A program made the translations under genes and the position numbers. Below, piece by piece: positions 14,938 to 29,010 of a stretch of DNA of 64,000 nt. The notes below the pieces were generated by a model that was given only the letters and a program-made list of their open reading frames with translations, was not told the origin of the DNA and ran no database searches. The stretch comes from a virus (taxonomy: Duplodnaviria; Caudoviricetes). How positions within the stretch are numbered: position 1 is the first letter of the stretch; every line of letters starts with the position of its first letter. The stretch covers positions 100-64,099 of IMG/VR virus record IMGVR_UViG_3300042940_000551; one strand, given 5' to 3'.

Positions 14938-15219
14938 GAGGGATTTTGTCTATAGCCTCGTAAATAGCATATTCGGCCCATATTGTCAAGGCTTCAGGGG
15001 CATTTTATATGTCGTCGTAAACGACAAATTTTGCCCACAATTTTGACAGATTCTGATCCATATGTATCTCATTATCTGAGATTATATATACGTTTGATAA
15101 GATTGACATACGTTTATTAAATATTTTCAGGGATTTTTTATAGCTCGTCGTAAATGCGAAATATGGCCCATATGTTTATACACAAAAAATCCACAGGCTG
15201 TGGATAAACCTGTGGATAT
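14938..15219. repeat. three ~45-bp imperfect direct repeats followed by a DnaA-box cluster
   Basis: AGGG-N16-CGTAA-N~10-GCCCA at ~14939, ~14997, 15129; TTATACACA 15176, TGTGGATAA 15199, TGTGGATAT 15211. Confidence 0.75.
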
Positions 15220-15245
15220 CTTGGGCTATGGATATATTAGATTAG

Positions 15246-15512
15246 TTATACGTTACTATGTTTCCTATTGGTTACAAGGGATCTCTTCTTCTGCCGCTCC
15301 AGCCGATCATTTAATAAATGGGACATAGTAGGTTCGATCTTTGTTACCACCACCTCTGAACATAGGGAGTTGAATCGCTCCTGTTCAGCTAGCTTTTGAG
15401 CTTTCTCTGCCTTCTTAGCCTTCCTGAAGGTCCGTAGGGCATAGTTGATATCTCTACCATGGGAATCTGCCCACATCTTAGGCTTGCGCTGCTTATCCCC
15501 TATTGACTTCAT
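15246..15512 (-). CDS. basic hypothetical protein
   Basis: ORF track; last gene of the minus block. Confidence 0.6.
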   Translation of the reverse strand: MKSIGDKQRKPKMWADSHGRDINYALRTFRKAKKAEKAQKLAEQERFNSLCSEVVVTKIEPTMSHLLNDRLERQKKRSLVTNRKHSNV

Positions 15513-15796
15513 GGTAGTTTGATATTGTCGAAGTTGTTCTTTAGTTTAATCTTATCGATTACTTGGTCTAACTTATATGCTAGGGCAAGACCTTCTGATA
15601 CAGTTCCGCCATTGTGGTATTCCCGCTCATATCGTCTTGCTTGCTTCTCTACAACCCATGCCACAATTTCCATAATGCGGTCTAAGGTGTAGGTTGGCTG
15701 TTCTGCTAGGTATCTGCCTAAAGCGGCAGGATTGAAGAAATGGTCTTCTACTGAATTTGCTAGTAGTTCTCCTATTTTATGTTCTTTGCTTTGCAT
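15509..15796 (-). CDS. hypothetical protein
   Basis: AAAGGCGGAG RBS. Confidence 0.75.
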   Translation of the reverse strand: MQSKEHKIGELLANSVEDHFFNPAALGRYLAEQPTYTLDRIMEIVAWVVEKQARRYEREYHNGGTVSEGLALAYKLDQVIDKIKLKNNFDNIKLP

Positions 15797-15840
15797 ATCT
15801 CCGCCTTTGTTAGTAACCTTGAATTATATCAAAAAATGTT

Positions 15841-15872
15841 AGGGAGGTCAATACCCACATACTGACCTCCCC
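15841..15872 (-). terminator. hairpin terminator
   Basis: gggaggtca-atacccacatac-tgacctccc. Confidence 0.75.
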
Positions 15873-15877
15873 TAGCT

Positions 15878-16024
15878 TTACTTCTTTGCTTGCTTCTTCT
15901 CAGCTTCGAACTTGATCCCCTGAGCTTCCGCCTCAGAGATAGCTTTAACTGCAGCTGATGAAAAACGGCCACGGAGGCCGACGGTGATTCCTTGGGTCTT
16001 TAGATATTCTCTCTTTGTTGACAT
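15878..16024 (-). CDS. Lsr2-like DNA-binding-domain-only protein (48 aa, not in ORF track)
   Basis: MSTKREYLKTQGITVGLRGRFSSAAVKA resembles Lsr2 C-terminal REW...G..V..RGR; own promoter, RBS and terminator. Confidence 0.7.
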   Translation of the reverse strand: MSTKREYLKTQGITVGLRGRFSSAAVKAISEAEAQGIKFEAEKKQAKK

Positions 16025-16127
16025 GGTATTAGATCCTTTCGTGATCATATGTATTCTATCAGAAACCAGGGGTTTTGTAAATACCCCCGTAAGACCAGCT
16101 TTTGGCCCCTATATATTTAGTTGTAAT

Positions 16128-17898
16128 TTAGGATATAACTATTTTGTCAAACCCTGGGTGATGTTCCATATCTTCAGGCGTATCTTCAATTAAAGATTCG
16201 TCATCATATGTTATCGTTTGTTCATCTAAGAATACGTCAGTTGCTTCAATGACATCATCTGTTGTAACTTCAAACCACTCTGTACTTGGATAGGCATTTG
16301 CAGCCTCCGCTGCAGCATATTCATCCGCAGCAGAGACATGTGTATAATAGTTTTGATATTTGGTTCCGAATACTCTATATCTAGGCATTCATTAACTCCC
16401 GTTCCTCCCACTCAGCAAACGTTCGGACAATGAAATCCTTACCTAGATTATAACAAAATTGTACTGCTTCTGTCAAGGACTCTGTCTCAAATATTGGGAT
16501 CTGAACAGGCTCTATCTCAGATTTATCATACACCTCAAATGTATCCACACCTCCAGGGGAACAGGAGTAATTAACTTCCAGGATTTCTAAGCTTGGCTCG
16601 TATGACATGATTATTGCCCTTCTGTTTGTTCTACCCTATCTCTAATTAGTTTAGAGATGATGTTATGTGCTTCTATATTTTCAGTTTCGCTGCCACCCCA
16701 CAATAGTTCTTGGGCTCTGCTTAATTGATCATTGATATATGTATCACTCATCTTCATCTTCGTCCTCCTCTTCTTCTTCAAACATTGTGTCCACAATGTA
16801 GTCACGGCTTAACATCCAGTCAAGGACGTCATCGTTGTGCTGTTCCGCCCCGTACTCCAGAGAGAAGCCTTGGCCCGCCTCTACAGCCTCACAGAGGTGG
16901 TTCCACATCTCATCTATGGTGCAGTTCTGCTTGTAGGTCTCATCCTCAAAGATGTTGTTAATGGTAGACCAAGTCCATAGCCAAACTAAGGATAGGCCTA
17001 GGTCCGTTGTGTCTAGAATTTTTAAACATTCGTTTAGTTTATCTTTGTCTTCAGGCTTCATTCCGTGCTCCAATCGCAAATGATAGGTCGTATGTTAGTT
17101 TATACAGGGACACTAATGCGTCTAGATATCCTTCTGCATAGGTCCTCTCCATAGAATCCATTGCTTCACCTGACCGTTGTTCTTCTATCAGGGTCCGCTC
17201 TAATTCCTTTTCTCCAAGAAGCATGAGGTTCTTTAGTTCCCCATGCATGATGTCTAGGCCCGTTACCTCTGCGTCTACCATTCGTTGTAAATGGACGGGA
17301 AGTTCAGTATGTCTCATTCATATACCCTTTCGTTAGAAGCATTCATTATATCAGTAGCCACTGACAATAAATGTTCGGTTGCCATAATTTGTCCCTGGAT
17401 ATTAATTTTAGATTGAACATTGTAATCACCCTCTAAGTCCTGGTTAAGACTAATTAGATGTATCTTCATATACTCTATGAATCTAGATGACTTAGTCAAA
17501 GTAACCCTCCGCCCATAGGCCCTGTAGGAAATCATTTGCTTTTAACAAACCTTCAACTAAAGGGTCTTCGTCTACTTGCTCCACATCAGAATTTCTAATA
17601 TAGAAAAGCTTTGCGTCATGGACGGCATTACTCATTTGATCTAAATCTTCTTTGGTATAACCTAGCATTATGCTTCCTCATCCCATTCTATGTAGTATTG
17701 GTCCCCTGGTTTCAAATCATAAAACTGATTGAACCTACCTTTAAGATAATTGCTTTCTGCCATATCGGCAAAACAATAGTCTGCATATAGTTGACCTTCA
17801 TCTAAATTAGAATTAACCCAATCTTCTACCAGTTGTTCACCAATATAAGAATACTCTGCGTCAATCACCATTTGGTTTTCATTCTCTAAGAAACTCAT
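16128..17898 (-). other. early small-gene cassette: 16128-16388, 16381-16608, 16611-16751, 16744-17061, 17051-17317, 17314-17499, 17492-17668, 17668-17898
   Basis: Coupled acidic ORFs with GGAG/AAAGG RBS; no recognisable domains. Confidence 0.7.
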
Positions 17899-18668
17899 AC
17901 TTCCGCCTTTTCTGTAGTATCCAATAGTACCATGTGGGTCTGACATTCTTTCATAGCCTCTTCATCCTGCCAAGAACCATAATTACATTCTGAGCAGAAT
18001 TCACCGCAGTCATTCTCACAATACTCAACACAATCAAAAGACTGGCAAGCATAGCAACGATTTTCCCATTCTGCCAATTCTTTTACTTCGCCACGAACAA
18101 TCTCATATTCCCCACCCCAACCTGTCTCTTCCTCAAACTCTAATGTGAGAAGGGAATTAGGAACAAGATTACTTAGTTTAGTTAAGATAGTTACAGCAGG
18201 TGACCAAGCAGTCTCATATTTATATACAACCCAGTTGTCATCACCTTCTGATTTTTCTTCAAGCAATTCTGTATTAGGATATTTGTCATCATCTGATACA
18301 GCAACATCCCATTTGGTTCCCCAATTAGAATTATTCCATGAATACCAATCCTTCTGAGTTTTAGCAAACTCAACAGATTTGCGGAACCAATCAGGGTCAT
18401 TCATATCTAAACCTGAACGGTCAGGCTGGCAGGCATACTCTTCATCAGTAATACCTTCATCCTTATATGAGTGGATATTAAAGAAAGCAAAAACAGGATT
18501 ACTATAAGTAACCTCTTTAATTTTGGTGGGGAACCCATGGGCATTAATATCACCCATACCATATGTCTCTTGTGCTAATGTAAATGGCTTATTAAGTCTA
18601 TCCTTAATCATATCAACTTCATCCTTTGGACCTTGTATGGTCAAAGTGTTATATACCCAATTTGGCAT
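17895..18668 (-). CDS. DUF1281/YubB ferredoxin-like domain protein
   Basis: MPNW..N.L.I.G, W...NWGTKW, ETAWSP; Cys-rich C-terminus. Confidence 0.75.
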   Translation of the reverse strand: MPNWVYNTLTIQGPKDEVDMIKDRLNKPFTLAQETYGMGDINAHGFPTKIKEVTYSNPVFAFFNIHSYKDEGITDEEYACQPDRSGLDMNDPDWFRKSVEFAKTQKDWYSWNNSNWGTKWDVAVSDDDKYPNTELLEEKSEGDDNWVVYKYETAWSPAVTILTKLSNLVPNSLLTLEFEEETGWGGEYEIVRGEVKELAEWENRCYACQSFDCVEYCENDCGEFCSECNYGSWQDEEAMKECQTHMVLLDTTEKAEV

Positions 18669-18847
18669 TATATTCCTTTCGATAGGTCCTAATTATATAA
18701 CACGCCACTGACATATGTCTATCATATTTGGTGTGTCTTACACCACATTTGATCGTTTGATAAGATAAAGATATGCTAAAATATCCAGGAATTTATTGAT
18801 CTCTCCGTAAGAGAGAATTTATACCCTCAGCTGTTGCGGGCAAAGAA

Positions 18848-18879
18848 AAATCCCCCAAGACCCGAAACCTGGGGGATTT
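18848..18879 (-). terminator. intrinsic terminator
   Basis: aaatccccca...tgggggattt with U-tract on the minus strand. Confidence 0.85.
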
Positions 18880-18883
18880 AAGA

Positions 18884-18996
18884 ATAAAGGCTGCTAGCAG
18901 AAACGAAAGGAATTTAGTAAACGCTGCTTTACTTAGCGACTAGGGGAGTCCCTGGTAGCCGCACCTTTATTATATAAAGAGGCCCACTAGGACCTA
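18884..18996. ncRNA. candidate structured small RNA
   Basis: ORF-free; closing stem 18884-97/18952-70, two inner hairpins; flanked by a -10 (19002-07) and a terminator. Confidence 0.4.
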
Positions 18997-19022
18997 TTCA
19001 TATTATATCATAAACTAGTTAA

Positions 19023-19427
19023 CTAAACTGAGATGACAACATCGGCATACTTCTCAACAAAGTTGCTGAGGTCCATGGTAAAGATGGCGTCATTGCTCAT
19101 CCCATTTACCTTGTTATCCAAGTCATTGCGTGGAGCCTCTTCATGAAGACTAAATGTCTGTTGCTCAAAGTCGATAATGGCAACCTTGTGCTCATTGTCG
19201 CCAATCTCATTAACGTATAGACCCCAGCCTGTTTCCATATTCCACTGGTCCGCAACCATTTGACTGATTGTGATACGTGTAGCATATGAAGGGTCATTCC
19301 AACGTGGACGTGCTTTAAACACTGCCTCTGCTAGGTTTGCTAGCATGTTATGTCCAGCCCAGTGTCCGTATAGCACAATTGTGTTACCGTTAGGTTGGAC
19401 GAATCCAAAGTTTGCTCTATCTCCCAT
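19023..19427 (-). CDS. phage hypothetical protein
   Basis: MGDRAN...LYGHWAG; follows internal TTGACA-N18-TAGAAT promoter. Confidence 0.8.
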   Translation of the reverse strand: MGDRANFGFVQPNGNTIVLYGHWAGHNMLANLAEAVFKARPRWNDPSYATRITISQMVADQWNMETGWGLYVNEIGDNEHKVAIIDFEQQTFSLHEEAPRNDLDNKVNGMSNDAIFTMDLSNFVEKYADVVISV

Positions 19428-20615
19428 TATATTTCCGCCTTTTCTAGTTGAGGTACTTCTTCGGTTTTATTCAATTCTATCATTTCAAAGGAGACCTTGT
19501 CAAGGGCCTCTTTGTTTTTATTGTAGTGGTGGCCACAGAAATATAGCTCACCGTCTACTAGTTTAATTAGATACATAGCTTGAGCTGTACCACATTGATC
19601 ACAGCCGATCCATCTAGTTAGATCCTCAGATGTCATAGTCAACGGTTCCAAATTCAATGCGGTCAGCAATCTCATCATAAACTTGACCATCATCTGAAGT
19701 CTCAGCCCAAACACGAATGTTTGCAACAATTACTTCACGAGTAAATTTTACTCCGTCCTCAAAACCATCTTGGTAATCCATTTTATCTCCCTGTGTATCC
19801 TGTTGGCTCGTATTCCGAAACATAAGATTCGATAAGATTGTGTTTGTCACGAATCTTACTTACTTTCTCAATACTACCAGTTCCAATGTTGAATGTCAAT
19901 GCTGAAATTGCCTGCGGGTCAAGACCCATTACTTGAGCATCCCAATAGGCCCTCTCCATGGAGAGCCTATCAGGAGCAGTCAACTCAAAATACATTAGGC
20001 TTCCCTAACGTTGCATACTTCTTGGTCGACAACTTCGATGTTGCCGTTGTTTGAATCAGCAAAGAGCGCATCTGTAACTTCATCCTCGATATCATAATCA
20101 TATGGGTCGAGTAAGTTAACTTCAATAGTTCCAGTTACTTCAACAGATGCAGTAAACTGAACAGTCTTAGTCAACTCAATATCAAGAGCCTCGGCGATTG
20201 CACGTAAAGTATCTTGGTCTTGTGAGTCAGCATATGCCTCAAGAATGATATCTTTAACTGAATCAATCTTAGAGTTAAGTAAACCGTTTTGCTTTTGACG
20301 TTCACGTCCATTGTGTAGTTCCCATTCAAGGTTAACTACTTTATCTGTTGCATATTCTGCATCAGAGTATCCACGGATAACTTTATAGGTTACCAATAGA
20401 TTTGGGTTATATGTATCGGGCACCGTTACTGTGCTTGTCTCTTCCATTTTATTTCCTTCCGTTTCTGTAGGGTCTGATTCTACCACATTGGTCTGACACC
20501 ACACAACACTTGGGTCACTACAATTACAGGACGGGTCCCGAAAATGTATTCCCTTAGATACAATCTCAATAGATGCATCGCATGAGTGACATACATACCA
20601 ATATGATTTGAACAT
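19427..20615 (-). other. ORFs 19427-19642 (CxxC..CxxH Zn finger), 19626-19781, 19783-19995, 19995-20615
   Basis: ORF track with refined starts; coupled. Confidence 0.7.
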
Positions 20616-20718
20616 GACGCTATTGTACAGGACCCCACTGACATTTACAAGGATTTCCAGGGATTTTTTTTACGTGTCGTAACACAAAAAATCCCCCCTT
20701 AGCTCTGCGGGCCCTTTG

Positions 20719-20792
20719 CGATCCATAACGGACTTGAACCGTCGACCTCTACCGTGACAGGGTAGCGCTCTAACCAACTGAGCTAATGGACC
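20719..20792 (-). tRNA. tRNA-Asp(GTC)
   Basis: GGTCCAT/ATGGATC acceptor, CTACC-CTGTCAC-GGTAG anticodon arm, GGTTCAAGTCC T-loop; no encoded CCA. Confidence 0.93.
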
Positions 20793-20832
20793 AAATGGTG
20801 AGCAGTTTTAAATCTTGCTCAGGATTTTTTCT

Positions 20833-21837
20833 TTAGAAGGATTTAACCATCTTAAGAATTTTATTTTTTTCTGCGGTTAAGATTGGGTCAAAACCACTTG
20901 CACCCGCCATTAGGGTTTCGGAATTACCACGACCAGAACGGAAATAGTCAAGGCGTTCGGTAAGCGCATTAAACGCACCCCACTTTGTGCCTTTAATATT
21001 AGCGTTAGTTGGTGAGTTATGATAAAGGTCATCGATTAGAACAACCTTATTTTCCCAACGCTTAATTGTTGATTTGTTATCAACATCAGGCTTAGGATAA
21101 ATTGAGCGAATCAACTTTGAGAATTCAACATCGGTAATCTCTTGGTTAAAGAGTTCCTGCGCTTCCTTCTCAAACTCATCGAAATACCCAAGAGCAAGCC
21201 CAAGAGTTTCACGAGCAACTTGAATTCGTCCTTCAACAGATTGTGTGTGACGAATCTTGAATGATTGCTTTGCATTACGCATTGCAAGATTAAGAGTGTT
21301 TTGGCAAACTACACGAACAGGTGTAATCGCTGCCTGAACAGCAACTGAGCCATCGTGTGATGTCCAAACAATTAAATATAACTTTGTTTGGTCATTGGCA
21401 CCTTGTGGGTCAAGCACCATTGTGCGAGGAATATCAACAGTTCCAAACACAACTTTGCCCTTCTTAAGAGAGCCAGCAGATTCCCAACGGCAATTAGGGT
21501 CTGCGTCATGAATATTATCTGCAAACGCAAACAATTCTTCATTCTGCACAACTTTGTAACGCTTACCAACAGTAGCGAGAACATCGGTTTCGCCGTTGAA
21601 TGGATTGTCACGCAATACAAGGTGGGATTCTGATACGTCATTCCACTCTGATGAGATATAATCGGTAATTGGAGAGAGACGAACATTCCAATTAGATAAC
21701 TTTGCTTCTTCAAGCATTGTTTGTGTAGTCACATCTTCATCTTGATTGAAGATACGATTGGCAAGATTATGCCATGCGGGTGCACCACGAAGAGCAAATG
21801 CAACTTCGCTACCATTGGTTTCTAGATTATGAGCCAT
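20833..21837 (-). CDS. DUF932 family protein (phage/plasmid TIGR03299-like)
   Basis: MAHNLE, APAWH.L, LG.VG.RY.VVQNEE.F, SHDGS, TPVRVVCQNTL. Confidence 0.88.
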   Translation of the reverse strand: MAHNLETNGSEVAFALRGAPAWHNLANRIFNQDEDVTTQTMLEEAKLSNWNVRLSPITDYISSEWNDVSESHLVLRDNPFNGETDVLATVGKRYKVVQNEELFAFADNIHDADPNCRWESAGSLKKGKVVFGTVDIPRTMVLDPQGANDQTKLYLIVWTSHDGSVAVQAAITPVRVVCQNTLNLAMRNAKQSFKIRHTQSVEGRIQVARETLGLALGYFDEFEKEAQELFNQEITDVEFSKLIRSIYPKPDVDNKSTIKRWENKVVLIDDLYHNSPTNANIKGTKWGAFNALTERLDYFRSGRGNSETLMAGASGFDPILTAEKNKILKMVKSF

Positions 21838-22114
21838 GGATTTTTTCCTTTCGATTGGTTAGTTTGGCAATTATAGCAGACGGGACTGACAAGCACAAGA
21901 TAAACTTGGCATATGTCCTAATTGTCTAGTGTGATCAATCTCATATTTTTGGGGGATTGTGGATAACTGTCGTAAGGCTGTGGATAACCCCGCACATCTG
22001 CGGGCTGTGAGCTGCAGCAGATATGCCTACTCCGAAAAGATAGTCGGAGATCGTGAGCATTCTTTGGCGTAGGGAAAAACAAGAAAACTACGCTTTGACT
22101 GCAGCCCAACAATT

Positions 22115-22354
22115 TTAGATTAGTTTAGTTATTTCAGTCCGCTTTGGAATTACGTCCATTGGTATCATTAACGCTGTAGTCTTTTTCTTTTTAAGACTAT
22201 CATATACAAACGCCTTGATGTTTCCATTAAATCGGCGCATGTTAGAGAAGACTAGTTCAGTTAGATATTGCTTATCAACGCCTTGTTCTGAGTAAAGAGT
22301 TAAATCATTAGCCTTTACTTCATCATAGATTTCTATTCTATAACGATTTTTCAT
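22115..22354 (-). CDS. hypothetical protein
   Basis: AAAGGA RBS. Confidence 0.75.
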   Translation of the reverse strand: MKNRYRIEIYDEVKANDLTLYSEQGVDKQYLTELVFSNMRRFNGNIKAFVYDSLKKKKTTALMIPMDVIPKRTEITKLI

Positions 22355-22392
22355 TTTATTCCTTTGTTAGTAGGGAGTTAAATTATAGCATT

Positions 22393-22417
22393 GGGGGCTA
22401 GAGTTTGTCTAGCCCCC
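22393..22417 (-). terminator. hairpin terminator
   Basis: gggggctaga-gtttg-tctagccccc. Confidence 0.8.
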
Positions 22418-22426
22418 TGCCATTAG

Positions 22427-22843
22427 TTAGAGATACTTGGCAATCTGCTTCATTGTAGAAGCATTTACTGTTTCCTCATCTGTCATTTTGAGAATTGTTA
22501 GGGCATTGGTGATGTCCTCTTTCATCTCACGATAAGTGTGCTGATGGATTTGCTCGTAGTCCTTTTCAGGCTCTTTAGGAAACGCTGTATCTTTTGTGAT
22601 GATGTCAAAATCAACATTAAGAGTGTTGTTCCATTGACGATAGTTTGTTCTGATGTTTTCTGCCTTAGAGAAATTGTCAATCGCCCACTTGCCGATTTCC
22701 TTATGCCACTTCTCACGGGCTTTCTGATACTTTGTTTCGTTTGCTTCTTGTGAAGCATAGTCTTTCTCTAGTGTTGATAGCCGAGCCTCTAGTGCTTTAA
22801 TTACTTTAGCAGTTGCTACCTTTACTGTGATTTGTCTTGACAT
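22427..22843 (-). CDS. hypothetical coiled-coil protein
   Basis: AACGAAAGGAA RBS and own promoter. Confidence 0.8.
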   Translation of the reverse strand: MSRQITVKVATAKVIKALEARLSTLEKDYASQEANETKYQKAREKWHKEIGKWAIDNFSKAENIRTNYRQWNNTLNVDFDIITKDTAFPKEPEKDYEQIHQHTYREMKEDITNALTILKMTDEETVNASTMKQIAKYL

Positions 22844-22971
22844 TATTTTCCTTTCGTTTCGGTTGGTTGATTAGTATAACATAGGGGTCTGACATTTACC
22901 CCTAAAGGTGAGAGTTCTTACTTACGACATTGGGCGAGAACACTCTCTAAACTGCCCCTGTTTCGTTCTAT

Positions 22972-24280
22972 TTAGTTGTTAGGTGCGCTAGTCCAGCGTT
23001 CCTTACCATTTACATCAAGCAGGATACGATTTGTTCCGCTAGGGTGGTTATCAACCGCCTTGATAACTCCTGTGATACCGCTTGTTGTTGTTGTGTAGGT
23101 TTGACCTACTTCTAGTGTTGTGTTCATTTATTTCCTTTCGTTAGGTGGATTATTATACCAAAGGGGTCTGACATTTATCTACCCCAATCTTATTATTTGA
23201 GATTCCAGGGGTGTGAGTTGCCTCACACTCCTGGTTTTGATCCCGTTAGTAAGCTTCGGGAAGCCAAGCGTGTAGGTGGTGTCCATCTACGATAGCAGAG
23301 GCGGGGCAAGAATCTTGACCTCTCCAAAATACGCCTTCGGGCAGTTTAATTAATCTTTGATAGTCCTCATCATAGTATGCGTCAATAGCATCTATACAAG
23401 GTTCGACCATAGATACTGGAACGGGTGGATAGTGATTACTAGTCAAGTGGATTTGAATTTGTGTTTCCAAGTCCAAGTCTAGTAGGTCATTACTAGCCAA
23501 GTCATATGCCATATTGCTTCCCATTATTCGTTCTCCTCTAGGATAGTTTCGGATAGGTTTTCCATTTCGTCTATTGTAGCGCATAGGTCTGACATTTCTT
23601 TTTCGGTTAGCAATACCTTAGTTATGCTATCGGCTACTTTTGCAGATAGGGCAGAGGAATACATATATAGATACTTAGCAAAGATTTCATCGCTAAGTTC
23701 ATTTCTGCGGGTATGCAGTTCTCCCGCAAGCCCCATTATATCCTCATCAAAGATAGAGTTTTTGGTTGCGTCTAATAAATCTATTGCAGTTGATAGCATT
23801 ATTCTGCCACCTTTAGAATAGCCCAAGAGCCACCCGCATTTACTTCGTCAATAACTGGAGTAATCTTAGGAAGTAAAATAGACTTTAGCATTCCTTCTAG
23901 CATAAAGATTTGTTCTTTTTCAGGTAACGCAAGTAAGCGTTGTGCGGTTGGATTTGTTTCGTCAAGTTCGGTGACGAAGTTTAGAGAGTGGCTGATGATT
24001 TTCATTTGTTGCCTTTCGTTGGTTGAATAATGGTATTTTACACTATGGCACCGACATTTGCTAATCCATCCTCGGCGTGTCGCAGTTTTTGTGAAGTTTC
24101 TCACATTTCAGGGTTATCCACAATTAACCCGTAAGCCTGTGGATAACCCCGCAGTATTGCGGGCCCTTTATCGCTCCTGGTCCCAAACTTCAGGATCCAC
24201 TTCTTTTAAATATTTTATTGCATCTGAACGTTCATCTTCCGTGCCGAGGACCGTCGCCATTAATGCGCTAAAGTATTTCA
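22972..24280 (-). other. ORFs 22972-23127, 23246-23524, 23524-23799, 23799-24005 and a short ORF starting at 24280
   Basis: Each cassette has a CGAAAGG-type RBS and a motif promoter. Confidence 0.7.
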
Positions 24281-24293
24281 TTTTTATTTCTCC

Positions 24294-25013
24294 TTATTTT
24301 TTAGTTGCGCTAAATCTAATATCTGCTTTACCATAAACACATAAGCCGCATGACACACATGCAGAACCATTGCTAGAAATAAGCGGAATGCTTTTATTAT
24401 TTTCAGGACATTTAGCGCCAGGCTTGCCCGTTAATTCTTTCATGGTGCTTTCGGTGACGGCGAATGTCTTTCCTAGATAAGCAAGGCGGATACCTTGATT
24501 AAGTTTTAAGTCATGAGCAATATCTTTATTCTCATCGTCGGTAGAATAGTAAAGTGATAAGTTAGAAATATCCTTAAGGATTAAGGCTGCAGACTTAACT
24601 CGTGTATATACCCAGAATTGAACATCGGGATGATTAGAGATAACAGTCTTCCACGCATATGCGTAGGTATCGTTAAAGAAATCCCCGTCCCAGTGGATAC
24701 GGAATAACTTAGGAGCACTCTTCTTATCGCAATCATTGACGAAGTCAACAATCATTTCGTCTAGCAATAAGCACATTGTATCCATATCTGCATTGCGTAG
24801 TAGTTCCCAGTTATGAAGAAGATTAGCCTTTACGGCTTTATAGAGTTTTTCCAATTTGCCTGCATAGCAAACACTCTCGCAGATAGACGTAGCGCCAGGA
24901 CATGAATAAGCCTTTCCTGCGGGTAATCCAAACGTGTTAGCAATTGCTGCCTGCTTTCCATTTTTTGTGACAAGGTTAGCCACCTTTCTATCATTAGAAC
25001 GTTTAAGCTTCAT
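24294..25013 (-). CDS. Gp88-like Fe-S/radical-SAM-related protein
   Basis: FGLPAG..SCPGATSICESVCYA, FRIHWDGDF, FWVYTR, C-terminal CxxC; ATG 7 nt after TATAAT. Confidence 0.75.
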   Translation of the reverse strand: MKLKRSNDRKVANLVTKNGKQAAIANTFGLPAGKAYSCPGATSICESVCYAGKLEKLYKAVKANLLHNWELLRNADMDTMCLLLDEMIVDFVNDCDKKSAPKLFRIHWDGDFFNDTYAYAWKTVISNHPDVQFWVYTRVKSAALILKDISNLSLYYSTDDENKDIAHDLKLNQGIRLAYLGKTFAVTESTMKELTGKPGAKCPENNKSIPLISSNGSACVSCGLCVYGKADIRFSATKK

Positions 25014-25042
25014 GGGGGTAATTATAGAGGTTAGGTCTGACA

Positions 25043-25267
25043 TTATAAGTCACCCATTTCTGCATCGGCCATACGGGACTGCATACGAAATTCATCTCTT
25101 TCAAATAAATCAAAGAATTTCATTTCGGAGCGCTCTAAGTCGCAAGTCCAGCAAATTATGCCGTCTAGTAATTCAGTTTCATCTCGGCAATCCGCACAAT
25201 TAGCAATAATTACGGGCTCGGTTGTAGCATAGAATTCGTCATAGAATTCATCATTTTCATAGTTCAT
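25043..25267 (-). CDS. small acidic Zn-binding protein
   Basis: CADC...CWTC. Confidence 0.65.
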   Translation of the reverse strand: MNYENDEFYDEFYATTEPVIIANCADCRDETELLDGIICWTCDLERSEMKFFDLFERDEFRMQSRMADAEMGDL

Positions 25268-25402
25268 GAGTTGACCTTTCGTTCGATTTAAGAGAATAAT
25301 ACCATGACGCACTGACATTTTCTGCAACCCGCCTCAGAATCCAGGGTGATTTTAATCACACCCGTAACGACACGCCCGACTCCGCAGCTCTGTGGGCGGG
25401 CC

Positions 25403-25418
25403 TCGAACATATGTTCTA
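25403..25418. promoter_or_regulatory. LexA (SOS) box-like site
   Basis: TCGAAC-ATAT-GTTCTA versus actinobacterial TCGAAC-N4-GTTCGA. Confidence 0.55.
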
Positions 25419-25438
25419 AATTATAAATTAGATCGTAA

Positions 25439-25573
25439 TTAATTTTCTAATTTATTTTTATGTTTTATTTTGCGTGTGTATTTTTTTTTATTGCGAACAG
25501 GTTGCGCCGCATTACTGCGACGCAATTCCTGAATTCGTTTTACTTTATCTCGTAGTGAGTTTTGGAATAACAT
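25439..25573 (-). CDS. basic 44-aa peptide with ArfA-like C-terminal motif (not in ORF track)
   Basis: MLFQNSLRDKVKRIQELRRSNAAQPVRNKKKYTRKIKHKNKLEN. Confidence 0.55.
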   Translation of the reverse strand: MLFQNSLRDKVKRIQELRRSNAAQPVRNKKKYTRKIKHKNKLEN

Positions 25574-26263
25574 AACCACTCGCCTCGTGAAATCTTTTTA
25601 CATCAAATCGCTCATTATCTTTCGCAAACATTTCAGCGAAATCATTTACGACTTTAGAAAAAACAGCGGGGTGAATTTTATTACTCGCATACTTTAGAAT
25701 TTCTGCGGTTGCGACATAATCTTTTCGTGTCATCATTTTACTACGACCCTTCTACCTTCACGATAAAATAATTTCGTGTAGCATTTTCCGCTAGGTGTGT
25801 AAAGATTTACAGTTGAGTATTCATCAGCAAATCCCCAATCCACATACTTAGCGAATTCGGTGTGAGCCTCTAATTCATCTGAGTATTCTCTTACAAAGTG
25901 GATAGGCTCGCTATCATTAGCAACAGTTATTTTATACATTAGATACCCCACTTTTCTAGAGCGCAATCGCAACTCTCTACATCATAATTGTTTTCATCGC
26001 CCCAAAATAAGAAGCCAGCACCGCCACACTCATCACAAGATACAGCGATTATTTCTGAGATATTTCCCATTAGTTTTCCTTTCGTTTTGTTGTAATAAAA
26101 TTATACCAGCACCCACCGACATTTATTCGGCTTCGGGTGTAGTAAAAATCCCCTCATTTAGTAAGCCCACCTCAAGGGCAAATAACTCATCGGGGGTTGC
26201 TTCGGATAAATCTACCCAGCCAGCACCCTCGTTGTCCATACGAAAAATTTCTATGTATCCCAT
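25545..26263 (-). other. small ORFs 25545-25736, 25733-25939, 25939-26070, 26123-26263
   Basis: Coupled ORFs, manually translated. Confidence 0.65.
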
Positions 26264-26265
26264 TA

Positions 26266-26472
26266 TTATTCACCTACCTTTACTGCGACTGTTGCGAATT
26301 TATTTCGCAAGCCACCCGCATTTATTTCGATTAGGTAGGCTTCAGTATTTTCGCCATACCAAATTTCTGGGCGGTGTTCAGCAGAAATAATCTCACCTGA
26401 AAAGTGGCGAGTATTTGAGCGATAGGTTTTTCCTACAAGTAGGCTTTCGATTGTGTATAGTTTGGTAGCCAT
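26266..26472 (-). CDS. hypothetical protein, paralog A
   Basis: YTIESLLVG.TY.S..R.F.G.IISAE.R...ATVAVK. Confidence 0.75.
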   Translation of the reverse strand: MATKLYTIESLLVGKTYRSNTRHFSGEIISAEHRPEIWYGENTEAYLIEINAGGLRNKFATVAVKVGE

Positions 26473-26740
26473 TGGCAGACCTTCTTTCGTTTGTTGTTAT
26501 AGCACCATTATAGCCGATAGCACCGACATTTTTCTACTTACTAGCCAGTAATTCCAAATAATGAGACGCTCAAGCCGTGTGTTCTTCATCACATAAAAAT
26601 GTCCGATTTGTCTGTCAAATCGACACGCCGTAGAATTCAGGGTTTTTTATAACAATGTCGTAACGACACGCCCGACGCCGCAGCTCTGCGGGCTTGTCAA
26701 GCCGACACGCCGTTGTGTCGGTGTGAATTACCTCACAATT

Positions 26741-26956
26741 TCAGTAATCTGAAATTCTGACCGCAACTGTTGCCCATTCATCAGTGAATGAACCTGTTGG
26801 GCGATAGCGAATTGAAAACGCTTCATAACCTTCAGGCGGATAAACATTTTCACGCTTTTCCGCAAAGTTAATTATTCCGCCATTAAATCGGCGACGCATT
26901 GACGTTGGTGAATAGTATTGATCCACCAACAAATCTACAATAGAATAACCTCTCAT
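26741..26956 (-). CDS. hypothetical protein, paralog B
   Basis: YSIVDLLVD.YY.P..R.F.G.IINFAE.R...ATVAVR. Confidence 0.75.
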   Translation of the reverse strand: MRGYSIVDLLVDQYYSPTSMRRRFNGGIINFAEKRENVYPPEGYEAFSIRYRPTGSFTDEWATVAVRISDY

Positions 26957-27210
26957 TGGTTTTCCCCTTTCTTTTCAGTAATTTTAGCAGATAGCACTGA
27001 CAAAGCTTGAGCCTTGCTTGCTTCACGTTGCGCTAAAACGTGTTTTTTAAATTCATCTAAATTCATTTTAGTTTTTCTCCTTAGTAGGTAGAGCGAATAA
27101 ATATTTTAGCAGAGCCTTGCGCTCATAAGTAGTTAATTCTGGGTGATTAGAAACCACTCCACCATTTTGGTATTCCCAAACAATTTTATTAAAAGTTTTT
27201 TCGGATAACA

Positions 27211-28649
27211 TTACATCACCCAACTTTCTTGAGTGTATGCTAACCACTCACCAAGGGTCATTAAACCCTTGTATTCATTACATTTACCGCAAAACATTTC
27301 GTTTGCGTAGTCTGAGCAAAAACCGCAGACAATTAAATTAGCCTCATCGGCTTGGACATTAGAGAGAGTAATCTCTCGGATTAGTGTAGTCATTTAAGAC
27401 CACCTTTCTTTTAACGATTAAAACCTTATTTAATCTTGATACTAGTATCCTACCATAGACCACTGACATTTTGACCCGTTTTTCGGGCGTGTCGGAAAAC
27501 TATTTTTGTGATTTACATCATGTGGATAACTTACGCTCAATTTTCAGGGGTTTTCCACACCTGTGTATAAAGCTGTGGATAACGCCCCCAAGTACTTGCG
27601 GGCCGATCTGACTTTGTCAAATCGACACGCCGATAATTAGCGCAAATCTTTTGTGAGTTCCCTCACATCTTCTTTTAACATTGGCCACGCCATACGCCAC
27701 AAGGATACGACGGAAACTAGTAGGGCTAATTGGACTAGTGTAGTTAGTAATCTATTCATTACTTATTCTTCTTTCTCTTATAAATCTTATAAGCAATTAG
27801 TAGGGCGGTAGTAATAGCGATAGTGTGCCAAGGTAAGTAGATAGCCCCAAAGAAACTATCAAACTCTAATCCGTATTCATTAGATACGATTAACTCAAAT
27901 CCGCTAGGTATCATTGTATTAGTCCTCCCAATCTAGTGCTAGTTCTTCTTCATCTAGCATATCGCTATCTGCTAAGTTTTCGTAGTAGGCTTTTTCCCAC
28001 TCTAAGTTTTCTTCTATTCCAATATAGGCATCTGCTACATCTGCTTGGATAGTATCCCATTTAGACATCATTAGTTTTGTTCTACCTTTCGCATATGTGC
28101 TACAACATTTTTAGAAATCTTTTGTAGTTCTGTTAGTGTCTTATTCATTTCATCTGCGCTAGTAGCGGTGAAGAAACCGAGGAATTGTGCCCCGTCCCAT
28201 AGTGAGTATGTTATTGTCATTTTATTTTCTATCCTTTTCGTTAGTTGTTATAGTTGATATTGTAGCCTATATGGCTGACATTACCTAGCATAGGGCTAGG
28301 TGTGTCGGTGTGAGTTATCTCACACCTAAGAGCCATTGGCTCTCATTAGGGCTTAGGTATTTATGAGATACGCAACCCTCTTTAGAGGCTAGTAACTCTA
28401 GGTAAGCCTTACGGCTCATATAGTTACCTACGCTATTACGAAACACAAGCGGATCACCTGTGTTACTACTAGCCATAGGGTGGCTAGCGTCTACAATAAT
28501 GTTATTCATTACTTAACTCCTTTCTTAGAGCAATTCTCCATGTGAACGAAGCAAGCGTATCCACACTCATCACAGATACTATCTGCTAGACGGGCACGGA
28601 TTTGTTCATAACTCTCAAGAGAGTTTCTATTTTCATATAGTGAGTTCAT
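27211..28649 (-). other. very small ORFs including 27211-27393, 28315-28509, 28509-28649
   Basis: GAAAGG RBS and motif promoters. Confidence 0.6.
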
Positions 28650-29010
28650 TTGGAACTCCTTTCTTTTTAGATAAACTTAGGTAATTTATTTGCTAGGCTC
28701 ACCTTTCGGATTATTTGCTAGGCTCATTTACCTTTATTTAATTTTCTTTATACTATAATCCTAGCAGGGGGGACTGACAAATATCAAGTCGCAAATCGGA
28801 CATGTCGGACAATTTGAAAAAAAAGTGTGTGAGTTAAGCCACATTTAGCCTATCTATGGGCGCACTATATAGACAAAACGGACATTTTTAAAGTGTGTAT
28901 CATACAAATTAAAATCCTATTAACATTTTGGTATATCTAAAATAGTAGTCGACTAAAAATATTTGATCATATCTATTGACCCAACAAAATCTGCTATGTT
29001 ATACTTAAGA

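Follow-up and report, generated by a model that had tools for sequence, protein, structure and literature searches.

Which signals set the expression of a gene block whose spacers repeat one ordered string of regulator-like motifs? The question is raised by a stretch of 64,000 nucleotides (nt; hereafter, the window) that makes up nearly the whole of a 64,099-bp IMG/VR viral contig of the Caudoviricetes (IMGVR_UViG_3300042940_000551, from position 100). Between 17.3 and 28.8 kb, the window carries a leftward (minus-strand) block of tiny ORFan genes arranged in about 18 mini-operons, which is probably a host-takeover module of the early expression class. The best explanation of the locus as a whole, which we consider probable, is that this block runs on promoters of the actinobacterial PafBC class, with about a third of them carrying ordered modules of Crp-type and DnaA-type boxes. 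An initial annotation of the sequence had described about 7 promoter units with matches to various host regulators; the units exist, although they belong to a set of 18 promoters, most of which are bare.

The contig has a guanine-plus-cytosine (GC) content of about 40% and an estimated completeness of 56%. No deposited phage matches the window at the nucleotide level, and the nearest relatives of its ribonucleotide reductase (66% amino acid identity) and portal protein (59%) are found in large Streptomyces phages of the BE cluster, or Stanwilliamsviridae. A gene inside the block encoding a protein of 334 amino acids (aa) identified 231 relatives in IMG/VR, from which 80 loci were fetched with up to about 10 kb on each side of the gene; 5 of the contigs, G001-G005, are 92-100% complete and 110-116 kb long. 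All 5 of these near-complete relatives encode WhiB, the literature's marker for actinophages, and none encodes a tyrosine or serine integrase, from which we infer that the clade consists of virulent actinophages, uncultured, of freshwater type and related to Stanwilliamsviridae. The term actinophage, used in the initial annotation, was thus correct despite the low GC content.

The core of the argument is the promoter. The pattern TGTCRG-N10-TANNNT is matched 19 times in the window, against 1.08 expected (chance expectations for whole-window counts are from dinucleotide shuffles throughout), and all but one of these, 18 in number, are minus-strand matches that fall within 17345-28779. The 80 related loci contain it 851 times in sense and once in antisense orientation. 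The clade logo, built from 639 contexts, reads aaaTGTCAGtgg-N4-tgcTAtAAT and holds no information upstream of aaaTGTCAG, that is, no -35 element. The spacer is rigid, with 868 matches for N10, 0-3 for each of N8, N9, N11 and N13, and 31 for N12, and AATGTCAG is invariant across 59 orthologous sequences. An ATG lies exactly 6-7 nt past the -10 hexamer in 71 of 587 promoters (12%) and, up to an offset of 16, is almost never found elsewhere; this peak fixes the -10 and the transcription start site (TSS). The 12% likely represent a leaderless class, with P25042 and P20643 as its candidates in the window, whereas promoters outside this class are followed by a short leader with a strong Shine-Dalgarno sequence. 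With the hexamer set at -12 to -7, TGTCRG falls at -28 to -23.

This architecture is that of a known class of host promoters. The PafBC motif determined in vivo is tGTCgg(N10)tA(N3)T, in which the 5′ part, at -23 to -28, is the '-26 element', the 3′ part is the SigA -10, the -35 is absent, and the GTC triplet does not vary among Actinobacteria (PMC8635444). PafBC wedges between DNA and sigma region 4, a mechanism termed sigma adaptation, and is active only with single-stranded DNA (ssDNA); in mycobacteria, RNA polymerase with SigA alone leaves PafBC promoters silent, so that ssDNA-activated PafBC is needed (PMC8635444, PMC11804915, PMC6789036). The phage promoters share with this class the position of tGTCgg/TGTCAG, the spacing of exactly 10 nt, the SigA -10 TAnnnT and the missing -35, and the motif is likewise non-palindromic and oriented. 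The TGTC(A/G)G-N10-TAnnAT promoter, the identity of which the initial annotation overlooked, passed all sequence-level tests and is, judged by these features, of the actinobacterial PafBC/RecA-independent (RecA-NDp) type, so that the main input predicted for the block is ssDNA or DNA damage, acting through sigma adaptation. The phage promoters also differ from their host counterparts: the genome they sit on is that of a virulent phage, where 10-18 of them follow one another in tandem; what they serve is mini-operons of ORFans instead of repair genes; their -10 is nearer to consensus and often extended; and one third of them carry Crp-type, DnaA-type and other upstream modules, dependence on PafBC being a prediction.

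For comparison with a bacterium, we used the genome of Actinobacterium SCGC AAA278-O22, which we take to be a freshwater acI single-cell genome; its GC content is higher than that of the phage, and it serves as a plausibility check only, not as an identified host. The genome contains tandem WYL genes and yields 3 matches to the stricter promoter motif versus 0 for the reversed control. Upstream of its recA, at a distance of 188 nt and abutting an SOS box, lies TGTCAGTGG-N4-TGCTAnnnT (L113:2520-2560, minus), and its carD has a PafBC-type promoter directly upstream, with the -10 ending 3 nt before the ATG of the annotated frame (L115:98-119). The flanks TGG and TGC of the phage promoters are common to the recA and carD promoters. 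A search for the promoter in bacteria returned 16 matches against about 17 expected by our own estimate, one of them being this same carD promoter and six others lying on phage fragments that were apparently mis-binned (see below).

Among the competing explanations, the one that survives best, while still unlikely, is that the promoters are constitutive, recognized by SigA through an extended -10, and that TGTCAG, GACA and GGCGTGTCG are operators of a single phage regulator, for example a shut-off repressor, the likeness to PafBC promoters being convergent. Indeed, TGn precedes the -10 in most copies, 116 of 650 promoters have GACA 25-27 nt 5′ of TGTC, an approximately 11-fold excess over background, TGTC/GACA is present in all accessory boxes, and any of the ORFans of the block, which lack Pfam matches, could bind DNA. 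Convergence, however, would have to account for the exact match to the PafBC motif in the element itself, its position at -28 to -23, the spacing and the missing -35, as well as for the flanks in common with the actinobacterial recA and carD promoters, and the rigid 10-nt spacing to the -10 suits an activator coupled to RNA polymerase better than an operator.

The promoters predicted to respond to PafBC are embedded in a conserved system that is confined to the block. In each of the 5 near-complete genomes, 10-13 promoters lie on one strand within a single block of about 12 kb, and all 31 perfect CRP-type sites, all 16 scaffolds (see below) and 20 of the 25 TTATCCACA boxes are located in or beside it; the remaining 50 kb or so of the window has no intergenic repeat comparable to those of the block. 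At least 80 related IMG/VR loci carry the motifs, the very conservation that the initial annotation had asked for, and the order it described (hairpin, TTACG..CCCTG, CRP-like box, GACA box, promoter, Shine-Dalgarno sequence, tiny open reading frames [ORFs]) is true of 6-7 units in the window. Clade-wide, about one third of the promoters bear an upstream control module: a perfect CRP-type box is found at 33% of promoters, GGCGTGTCG at 27%, the scaffold at 19%, and a DnaA-type box at about 15%. When the orthologous units 5′ of the 334-aa gene are aligned (59 distinct sequences), each module is conserved and the intervening stretches vary, which supports purifying selection on the boxes. Motifs, order, spacing, strand bias, conservation and block-specificity are all direct observations.

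The most frequent module is the CRP-type box. The window holds 5 perfect copies of TGTGA-N6-TCACA against about 0.1 expected and, with up to one mismatch allowed, 10 against 2.2; of these 10, 9 (5 perfect, 4 with one mismatch) are clustered at 21.9-28.85 kb, and the 80 related loci contain 459 such sites. The half-sites are invariant and the AT-rich spacer does not pair; therefore, the element is a DNA site for a dimeric protein. An RNA hairpin was considered and rejected, given the non-pairing spacer and the absence of covariation. Collapsing the orthologues leaves 14 unit families; 6 of them have the box at -63.5/-64.5 and another 4 have it at -73.5/-74.5, a distribution suggestive of helical phasing (R 0.55-0.63, p about 0.01), with off-phase exceptions. 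The 7 proximal boxes of the window are located at -63.5, -64.5, -69.5, -74.5, -74.5, -84.5 and -85.5. It is plausible that the -64/-74 position is class-I-like, for host Crp/GlxR: as in class I CRP/GlxR promoters (PMC10187061), perfect TGTGA-N6-TCACA sites with an AT-rich spacer lie upstream at positions one helical turn apart, although the corresponding positions in Escherichia coli, -61.5 and -71.5, differ by about 3 bp from those of the phage boxes (-64.5 and -74.5, counted from the predicted TSS). Unlike class I CRP promoters, the phage core is a sigma-adaptation promoter, and some of the phage sites are off-phase or 200 bp away; in the literature on class I CRP and PafBC systems, we found no description of a CRP box combined with a sigma-adaptation core promoter. 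A Crp/GlxR orthologue that has the recognition helix RETVNK and scores 263 bits to Mycobacterium tuberculosis Crp is encoded in the comparison genome.

A second candidate input is DnaA. The window contains 9 copies of TTATCCACA versus 1.0 expected, 7 of them in the block; 7 perfect boxes lie in four clusters, including those noted in the initial annotation at 21.95, 24.11 and 27.55 kb, all of which are present. In the related loci, DnaA-type boxes occupy two slots of the scaffold, as direct pairs in 23 contexts and as inverted pairs in 23-26. In 14 of 23 inverted pairs, the two boxes differ at the W of TTWTNCACA alone, and the change is not compensated; this is also the one position where variation of the boxes is common. 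These changes and the occurrence of both orientations indicate that the constraint is on the sequence of the box and not on pairing. The possibility that the boxes are mere stem arms was accordingly rejected, direct pairs being as frequent as inverted ones and the mismatches uncompensated. Boxes of the forms GTTATCCACAGGC and GTTATCCACAAC are present in the rpmH-dnaA spacer of the comparison genome.

The scaffold that holds these slots, TTACG-N15/16-CCCTG, occurs in five dispersed units of the window (at 26.66, 25.37, 24.13 and 20.68 kb and, in degenerate form, at 21.97 kb) and in 3 tandem copies, and is found 244 times in sense and never in antisense orientation in the 80 related loci. In full, it consists of GCCCnCA..TGnGGG, TTACG and CCCTGRAAwTT, with slots that are usually filled by DnaA-type or GGCGTGTCG boxes; GGCGTGTCG itself is present 7 times in the window, against 0.02 expected. 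Its first component, hairpin 1, with 3 copies of CCCGCA-N4-TGCGG versus 0 expected, had been presented as a shared part of all units in the form GCCCGCA-N4-TGCGGG; the sequence is exact in 3 units but degenerate in 3 more. Covariation in hairpin 1 is only partial, a G.A mismatch is found in 30% of instances, and neither a U-tract nor a G.U asymmetry is present, so that its role as an intrinsic terminator is unsupported. Hairpin 1, TTACG and CCCTGRAA are best treated as a putative strand-specific DNA scaffold. A promoter of the extracytoplasmic function type, or an antisense promoter, was also considered for the scaffold and rejected, because both the AAC of the -35 and a phage sigma factor are absent.

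Distinct from hairpin 1 are hairpins of variable sequence 5′ of the scaffold, which have a mean folding free energy of -14.5 kcal/mol and are more stable on the sense strand in 74 cases versus 32. This stability and strand bias suggest an RNA 3′-end or terminator element; most of these hairpins lack a U-tract, and most promoters lack a hairpin. Canonical T-tract terminators were found only at 15189-15217, 15841-15872 and 18848-18879. The first of these terminators lies where the block ends and has a stem made of DnaA-type boxes (15176-15218, minus strand); three scaffolds follow, for which reason we favour, with low confidence, an insulator or roadblock role of the scaffold over a role in an origin.

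That the DnaA boxes and scaffold repeats are instead origin iterons or DnaA-titration sites, especially in the triple copy at 14.94-15.2 kb, is an alternative to which we give little credence. It draws on a 540-nt non-coding convergent zone that has no promoter and contains the three tandem scaffolds (14938-15153, minus strand, at 15128-15153, 14995-15020 and 14938-14963) together with DnaA-type boxes, and on the strand specificity of the scaffolds, which resembles that of iterons. The same elements, however, are dispersed directly 5′ of promoters at fixed positions within the module, one complete relative has zero exact scaffolds, and the boxes at 15.2 kb are a canonical T-tract terminator stem.

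A further module is the GACA(C) box. The conserved GACAC-containing unit near -50 is a 9-mer, and CGACACGCC boxes are found at about -50 of P27468 (27486-27494, minus) and of P24056 (24074-24082, minus). An input from WhiA to the GACAC box would be weak. The LexA box reported at 25.40 kb is indeed there as sequence, an 11/12 match to TCGAAC-N4-GTTCGA at 25403-25418, but an SOS role is hard to sustain for a lone site about 121 bp 5′ of its promoter, P25317, in two lineages. The extended consensus is matched once in the window versus 0.05 expected (p about 0.05), and the SOS box at recA in the comparison genome is similar; among the relatives, it recurs, with a different spacer, only in L083 and L085, in a shared sequence context, whereas the others have unrelated palindromes in this slot. 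Matches to the 8-base LexA core fall mostly in coding context. This input is weak: the box is borderline, lineage-restricted and badly placed.

If the sites are of host type, the question is who reads them. No WYL/PafBC protein and no Sigma70_r2 domain was found in the 5 near-complete phage genomes, nor, in near-complete phage genomes, the Crp helix-turn-helix domain HTH_Crp_2 or the DnaA DNA-binding domain DnaA_C, and Pfam searches of the larger ORFs and 20 small ORFs revealed no phage-encoded regulator. The regulators that are absent from the phages are present, along with identical cis-elements, in the actinobacterial genome. With neither WYL/PafBC proteins nor a sigma factor in the phage, host PafBC is predicted to switch on the block. 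Of the initial proposal that early cassettes are tuned to the state of the host, the general notion gains from the fact that the phage lacks the cognate regulators and from the conservation and confinement of the boxes to the block, and loses its LexA and WhiA inputs, which are weak. A read-out of host factors by a virulent actinophage is, in our view, the best reading, unproven as it is, with Crp and DnaA as plausible inputs. A separate observation is that G001-G005 each encode a RecA-family protein of about 338 aa, scoring 121-138 bits to PF00154 (e.g., L114; G003:C1:2339-3022); a phage recombinase acting on ssDNA could affect the activation of PafBC.

An activator encoded by the phage or delivered with the virion, like MotA/AsiA of T4, could also read an element of the -26 type, in which case the block would be a middle class that the phage itself controls, with no need of host PafBC; this we regard as still less credible than an origin. 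The layout, an element near -30 plus a -10, does resemble that of MotA-box promoters, a parallel drawn in PMC8635444, and unannotated ORFs make up half of each genome. Nevertheless, the lack of WYL and sigma domains in the 5 near-complete genomes speaks against such a factor, and promoters that share their sequence with the host type need no reader of their own.

In the mechanism that we propose, each of the approximately 18 mini-operons would be driven by a PafBC/RecA-NDp-class promoter, and host PafBC would turn the block on, in response either to ssDNA that arises when the genome enters or later, or to damage already present in the cell. Where upstream modules are present, their order is a variable-sequence RNA hairpin closing the previous operon; the strand-specific DNA scaffold, with its two slots for DnaA-type or GGCGTGTCG boxes; TGTGA-N6-TCACA about 64 or 74 bp upstream, for host Crp/GlxR; and the GACA(C) box near -50. 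Binding by PafBC, Crp and DnaA, the sign of the effects and the timing of expression are what we infer from the sequence. In its most specific form, in which the whole takeover block is under host PafBC, a third of the promoters are gated by host Crp, and the DnaA-box modules act as polar insulators, the mechanism is tentative, and we would not be surprised to see parts of it fail.

Several observations weigh against this mechanism. Given a near-consensus extended -10 (TGnTATAAT), many of the phage promoters could be active in the absence of PafBC, and a damage-dependent block is an odd choice for immediate-early genes. The recurrence of TGTC/GACA in the accessory boxes makes a single phage protein reading TGTC half-sites conceivable. 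Off-phase spacing is found in 2 of the 14 CRP classes, and duplication of units could pass on the spacing, so that the families are maybe not independent. No reader can be assigned to hairpin 1 or to the scaffold. The whole motif system is absent from the cultured relatives Coruscant and Mandalore. Finally, the comparison with SCGC AAA278-O22 is a plausibility check only.

The initial annotation also suggested that the shared units allow shuffling of cassettes, as proposed for the promoter early stem-loop (PeSL) elements of T4-like phages, and the version of this idea in which the units are chiefly recombination modules for ORFan cassettes and the regulator-like boxes are incidental, already disfavoured, is very unlikely: gene content is highly mosaic (a given segment is present in 2 to 80 of the 80 loci), one indel is promoter-flanked and another has a 40-nt junction overlap in a GGCGTGTCG/TTGACA box, and a 71-nt inter-unit repeat has 79% identity, but breakpoints are hardly denser at unit junctions (32.7 per 100 nt) than at plain gene junctions (27.6; inside genes, 6.7), of the 19 clean indels that separate close relatives, 17 are not unit-mediated, with most located at TAATG stop/start overlaps, and the boxes in orthologous units are kept base by base.

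The resemblance to PeSLs is nevertheless real, in that both are repeated hairpin-plus-promoter units among the small ORFans of a large virulent phage, in a region that is hyperplastic (PMC2839356, PMC4122927). PeSL promoters, however, match the full sigma-70 consensus, -35 included, and have an AT-rich UP region, whereas the units described here have no -35 and a -26 element; PeSLs lack the host-regulator boxes; and PeSL-mediated recombination is documented in T4-like phages (PMC2839356, PMC4122927), compared with the 2 of 19 indels here. Among actinophages, the closest analogues are the stoperators of Cluster A (PMC9283540), the start-associated and extended start-associated sequences (SAS/ESAS) of Cluster K (PMC3203893) and the 17-bp palindromes of Cluster O (PMC4351075), all of which are short conserved motifs in tens of copies that favour one orientation relative to transcription and cluster in the arm of non-structural genes, with leaderless transcripts occurring as well; the Cluster O palindromes accompany leaderless SigA promoters (PMC4351075). 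The readers of these repeats, shown or presumed, are phage proteins or the ribosome, and none of the repeats fits the consensus of a host global regulator or forms a multi-slot ordered module. The initial statement that nothing of the kind had been described in actinophages therefore holds for this composition but not for dispersed regulatory repeats in general. Judged by titles and abstracts, none of the best-ranked among 61 papers that mention both PafBC and phage deals with phage promoters of this type.

If our reading is correct, this would be the first phage found to exploit sigma adaptation, and a case of multi-input read-out of the host state by a lytic phage. PafBC sigma adaptation has so far been described as a DNA-damage mechanism of the host, so that an array of 10-18 phage promoters would constitute its co-option, and would explain how gene classes are timed by a phage that has no sigma factor or activator of its own. 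Infection would thereby be tied to the ssDNA alarm of the host, which is also sensed by many WYL-regulated defence systems. The Crp-type and DnaA-type modules are concrete, mutable sites through which to ask whether abundant freshwater actinophages fit early expression to host energy and replication. The rigid motif could, in addition, help to annotate hundreds of genomes of uncultured phages, as a predictor of TSSs, of leaderless starts and of the limits of operons.

The individual units can be followed in the direction of transcription; all elements are on the minus strand, except for the CRP-type and LexA-like boxes, which were not assigned a strand. The first promoter of the block, P28779 (28758-28779), has the form TGTCAG-N10-TAGGAT and a one-mismatch CRP-type box at about -84.5 (28828-28843). 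P28280 (28259-28280) is preceded by a perfect box at -64.5 (28309-28324) that overlaps the upstream stop codon. P27468 (27447-27468) has a perfect distal CRP-type box about 190 bp 5′ of it (27652-27667), followed by a GGCGTGTCG box (27623-27631) and a TTGAC..GTCA palindrome, and by four DnaA-type boxes in 27521-27582 (27574-27582, 27562-27570, 27551-27559, which is inverted, and 27521-27529). P27002 (26981-27002) is located within a 37-aa ORF, before a 71-aa ORF. P26528 (26507-26528), of the TGTCGG form, has several upstream elements: a perfect distal CRP-type box about 200 bp 5′ (26722-26737), three GGCGTGTCG boxes in 26621-26711 (26703-26711, 26664-26672 and 26621-26629), a sequence-conserved hairpin 1 of the form GCCCGCA-N4-TGCGGC (26677-26693), a TTACG-N16-CCCTG scaffold (26638-26663) and a one-mismatch CRP-type box at about -85.5 (26578-26593). 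P26121 (26100-26121) is bare.

In the unit of P25317 (25296-25317), the scaffold TTACG-N16-CCCTG (25342-25367) has a GGCGTGTCG box in slot X (25368-25376) and a CRP-type box in slot Y (25345-25360), at about -63.5; the latter is the CRP box claimed for the N16 slot at 25.35 kb, which is present with one mismatch. P25042 (25021-25042) is followed by an ATG at 25010, 7 nt past the -10, which makes a leaderless start of the 249-aa gene likely; alignments of its product with homologues begin at residue 10-13. Upstream of P24056 (24035-24056) are hairpin 1, GCCCGCA-N4-TGCGGG (24148-24164), an inverted TTATCCACA pair flanking TTACG (24114-24146), the TTACG-N16-CCCTG scaffold (24109-24134) and a perfect, off-phase CRP-type box at -69.5 (24090-24105). 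P23594 (23573-23594) lies within the 3′ end of an ORF, P23173 (23152-23173) has a perfect CRP-type box at -74.5 (23212-23227), and P22894 (22873-22894) has the -10 TATACT. The unit of P21891 (21870-21891), the promoter of the conserved 334-aa gene, comprises a variable-sequence RNA hairpin, CTCCGA..TCGGAG, at approximately 22028-22050, between the stop of the upstream gene at 22115 and hairpin 1 (GCCCGCA-N4-TGCGGG, 21989-22005); a direct TTATCCACA pair, 21 bp from start to start (21958-21987); a scaffold with a degenerate 3′ end, CCCCC (21950-21975); and a CRP-type box at -74.5 (21930-21945), with one mismatch here and perfect in most orthologues.

Farther downstream, a gene for tRNA-Asp (20718-20792) lies inside the block and is followed by a scaffold of the form TTACG-N15-CCCTG (20658-20682) and by P20643 (20622-20643), a leaderless candidate with its ATG at 20615, 6 nt past the -10; besides tRNA, no known RNA family was detected. 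P20498 (20477-20498) is located in-frame inside a 206-aa ORF, and P18713 (18692-18713), P17945 (17924-17945) and P17366 (17345-17366) complete the block.

Some further features in or near the block fall outside this scheme. At 22382-22420 (minus), a hairpin GGGGGCTAG..CTAGCCCCC precedes an extended -10, TGcTATAAT, without TGTCAG, 5′ of a 79-aa ORF, an arrangement that places another promoter class within the block. TTGACA-N18-TATAAT sites of canonical form are found at 16447-16476 and 19474-19503. The strong T-tract terminator at 18848-18879 lies in an ORF-free stretch (18844-18903, minus) with weak, sub-threshold matches to Rfam small RNAs (E 0.2-0.5). Only two Pfam matches above the curated cut-off were obtained among the block ORFs tested, namely, DUF7455 (E about 1e-12) in a 100-aa ORF at 19427-19729 (minus), in the distal part of the block, and the ferredoxin-like DUF1281_C domain in a 257-aa ORF at 17895-18668.

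Beyond the window, the leftward block of Coruscant has its own repeat, GGCGCCCGGCGCCA, in 11 copies located 17 nt 5′ of TAnnnT, along with GCCCTTCGGGGC hairpins, an analogous yet unrelated promoter/operator vocabulary. Six short contigs (L094, L095, L099, L104, L105 and L107) carry the phage promoter with CRP-type and GCG boxes and are binned in unrelated metagenome-assembled genomes (Acidimicrobiaceae, Gammaproteobacteria, Bacteroidia, a cyanobacterium and Saccharibacteria); we take them for wrongly binned pieces of genomes from this phage clade. Elsewhere in the window, a 410-aa ORF at the left end contains 14 tandem 15-nt repeats (436-720), encoding a Pro/Thr/Val/Glu-rich repeat with an extensin-like Pfam match, and tRNA genes for Asn, Gly, Gln and Arg are located at 30916-31218 on the plus strand.

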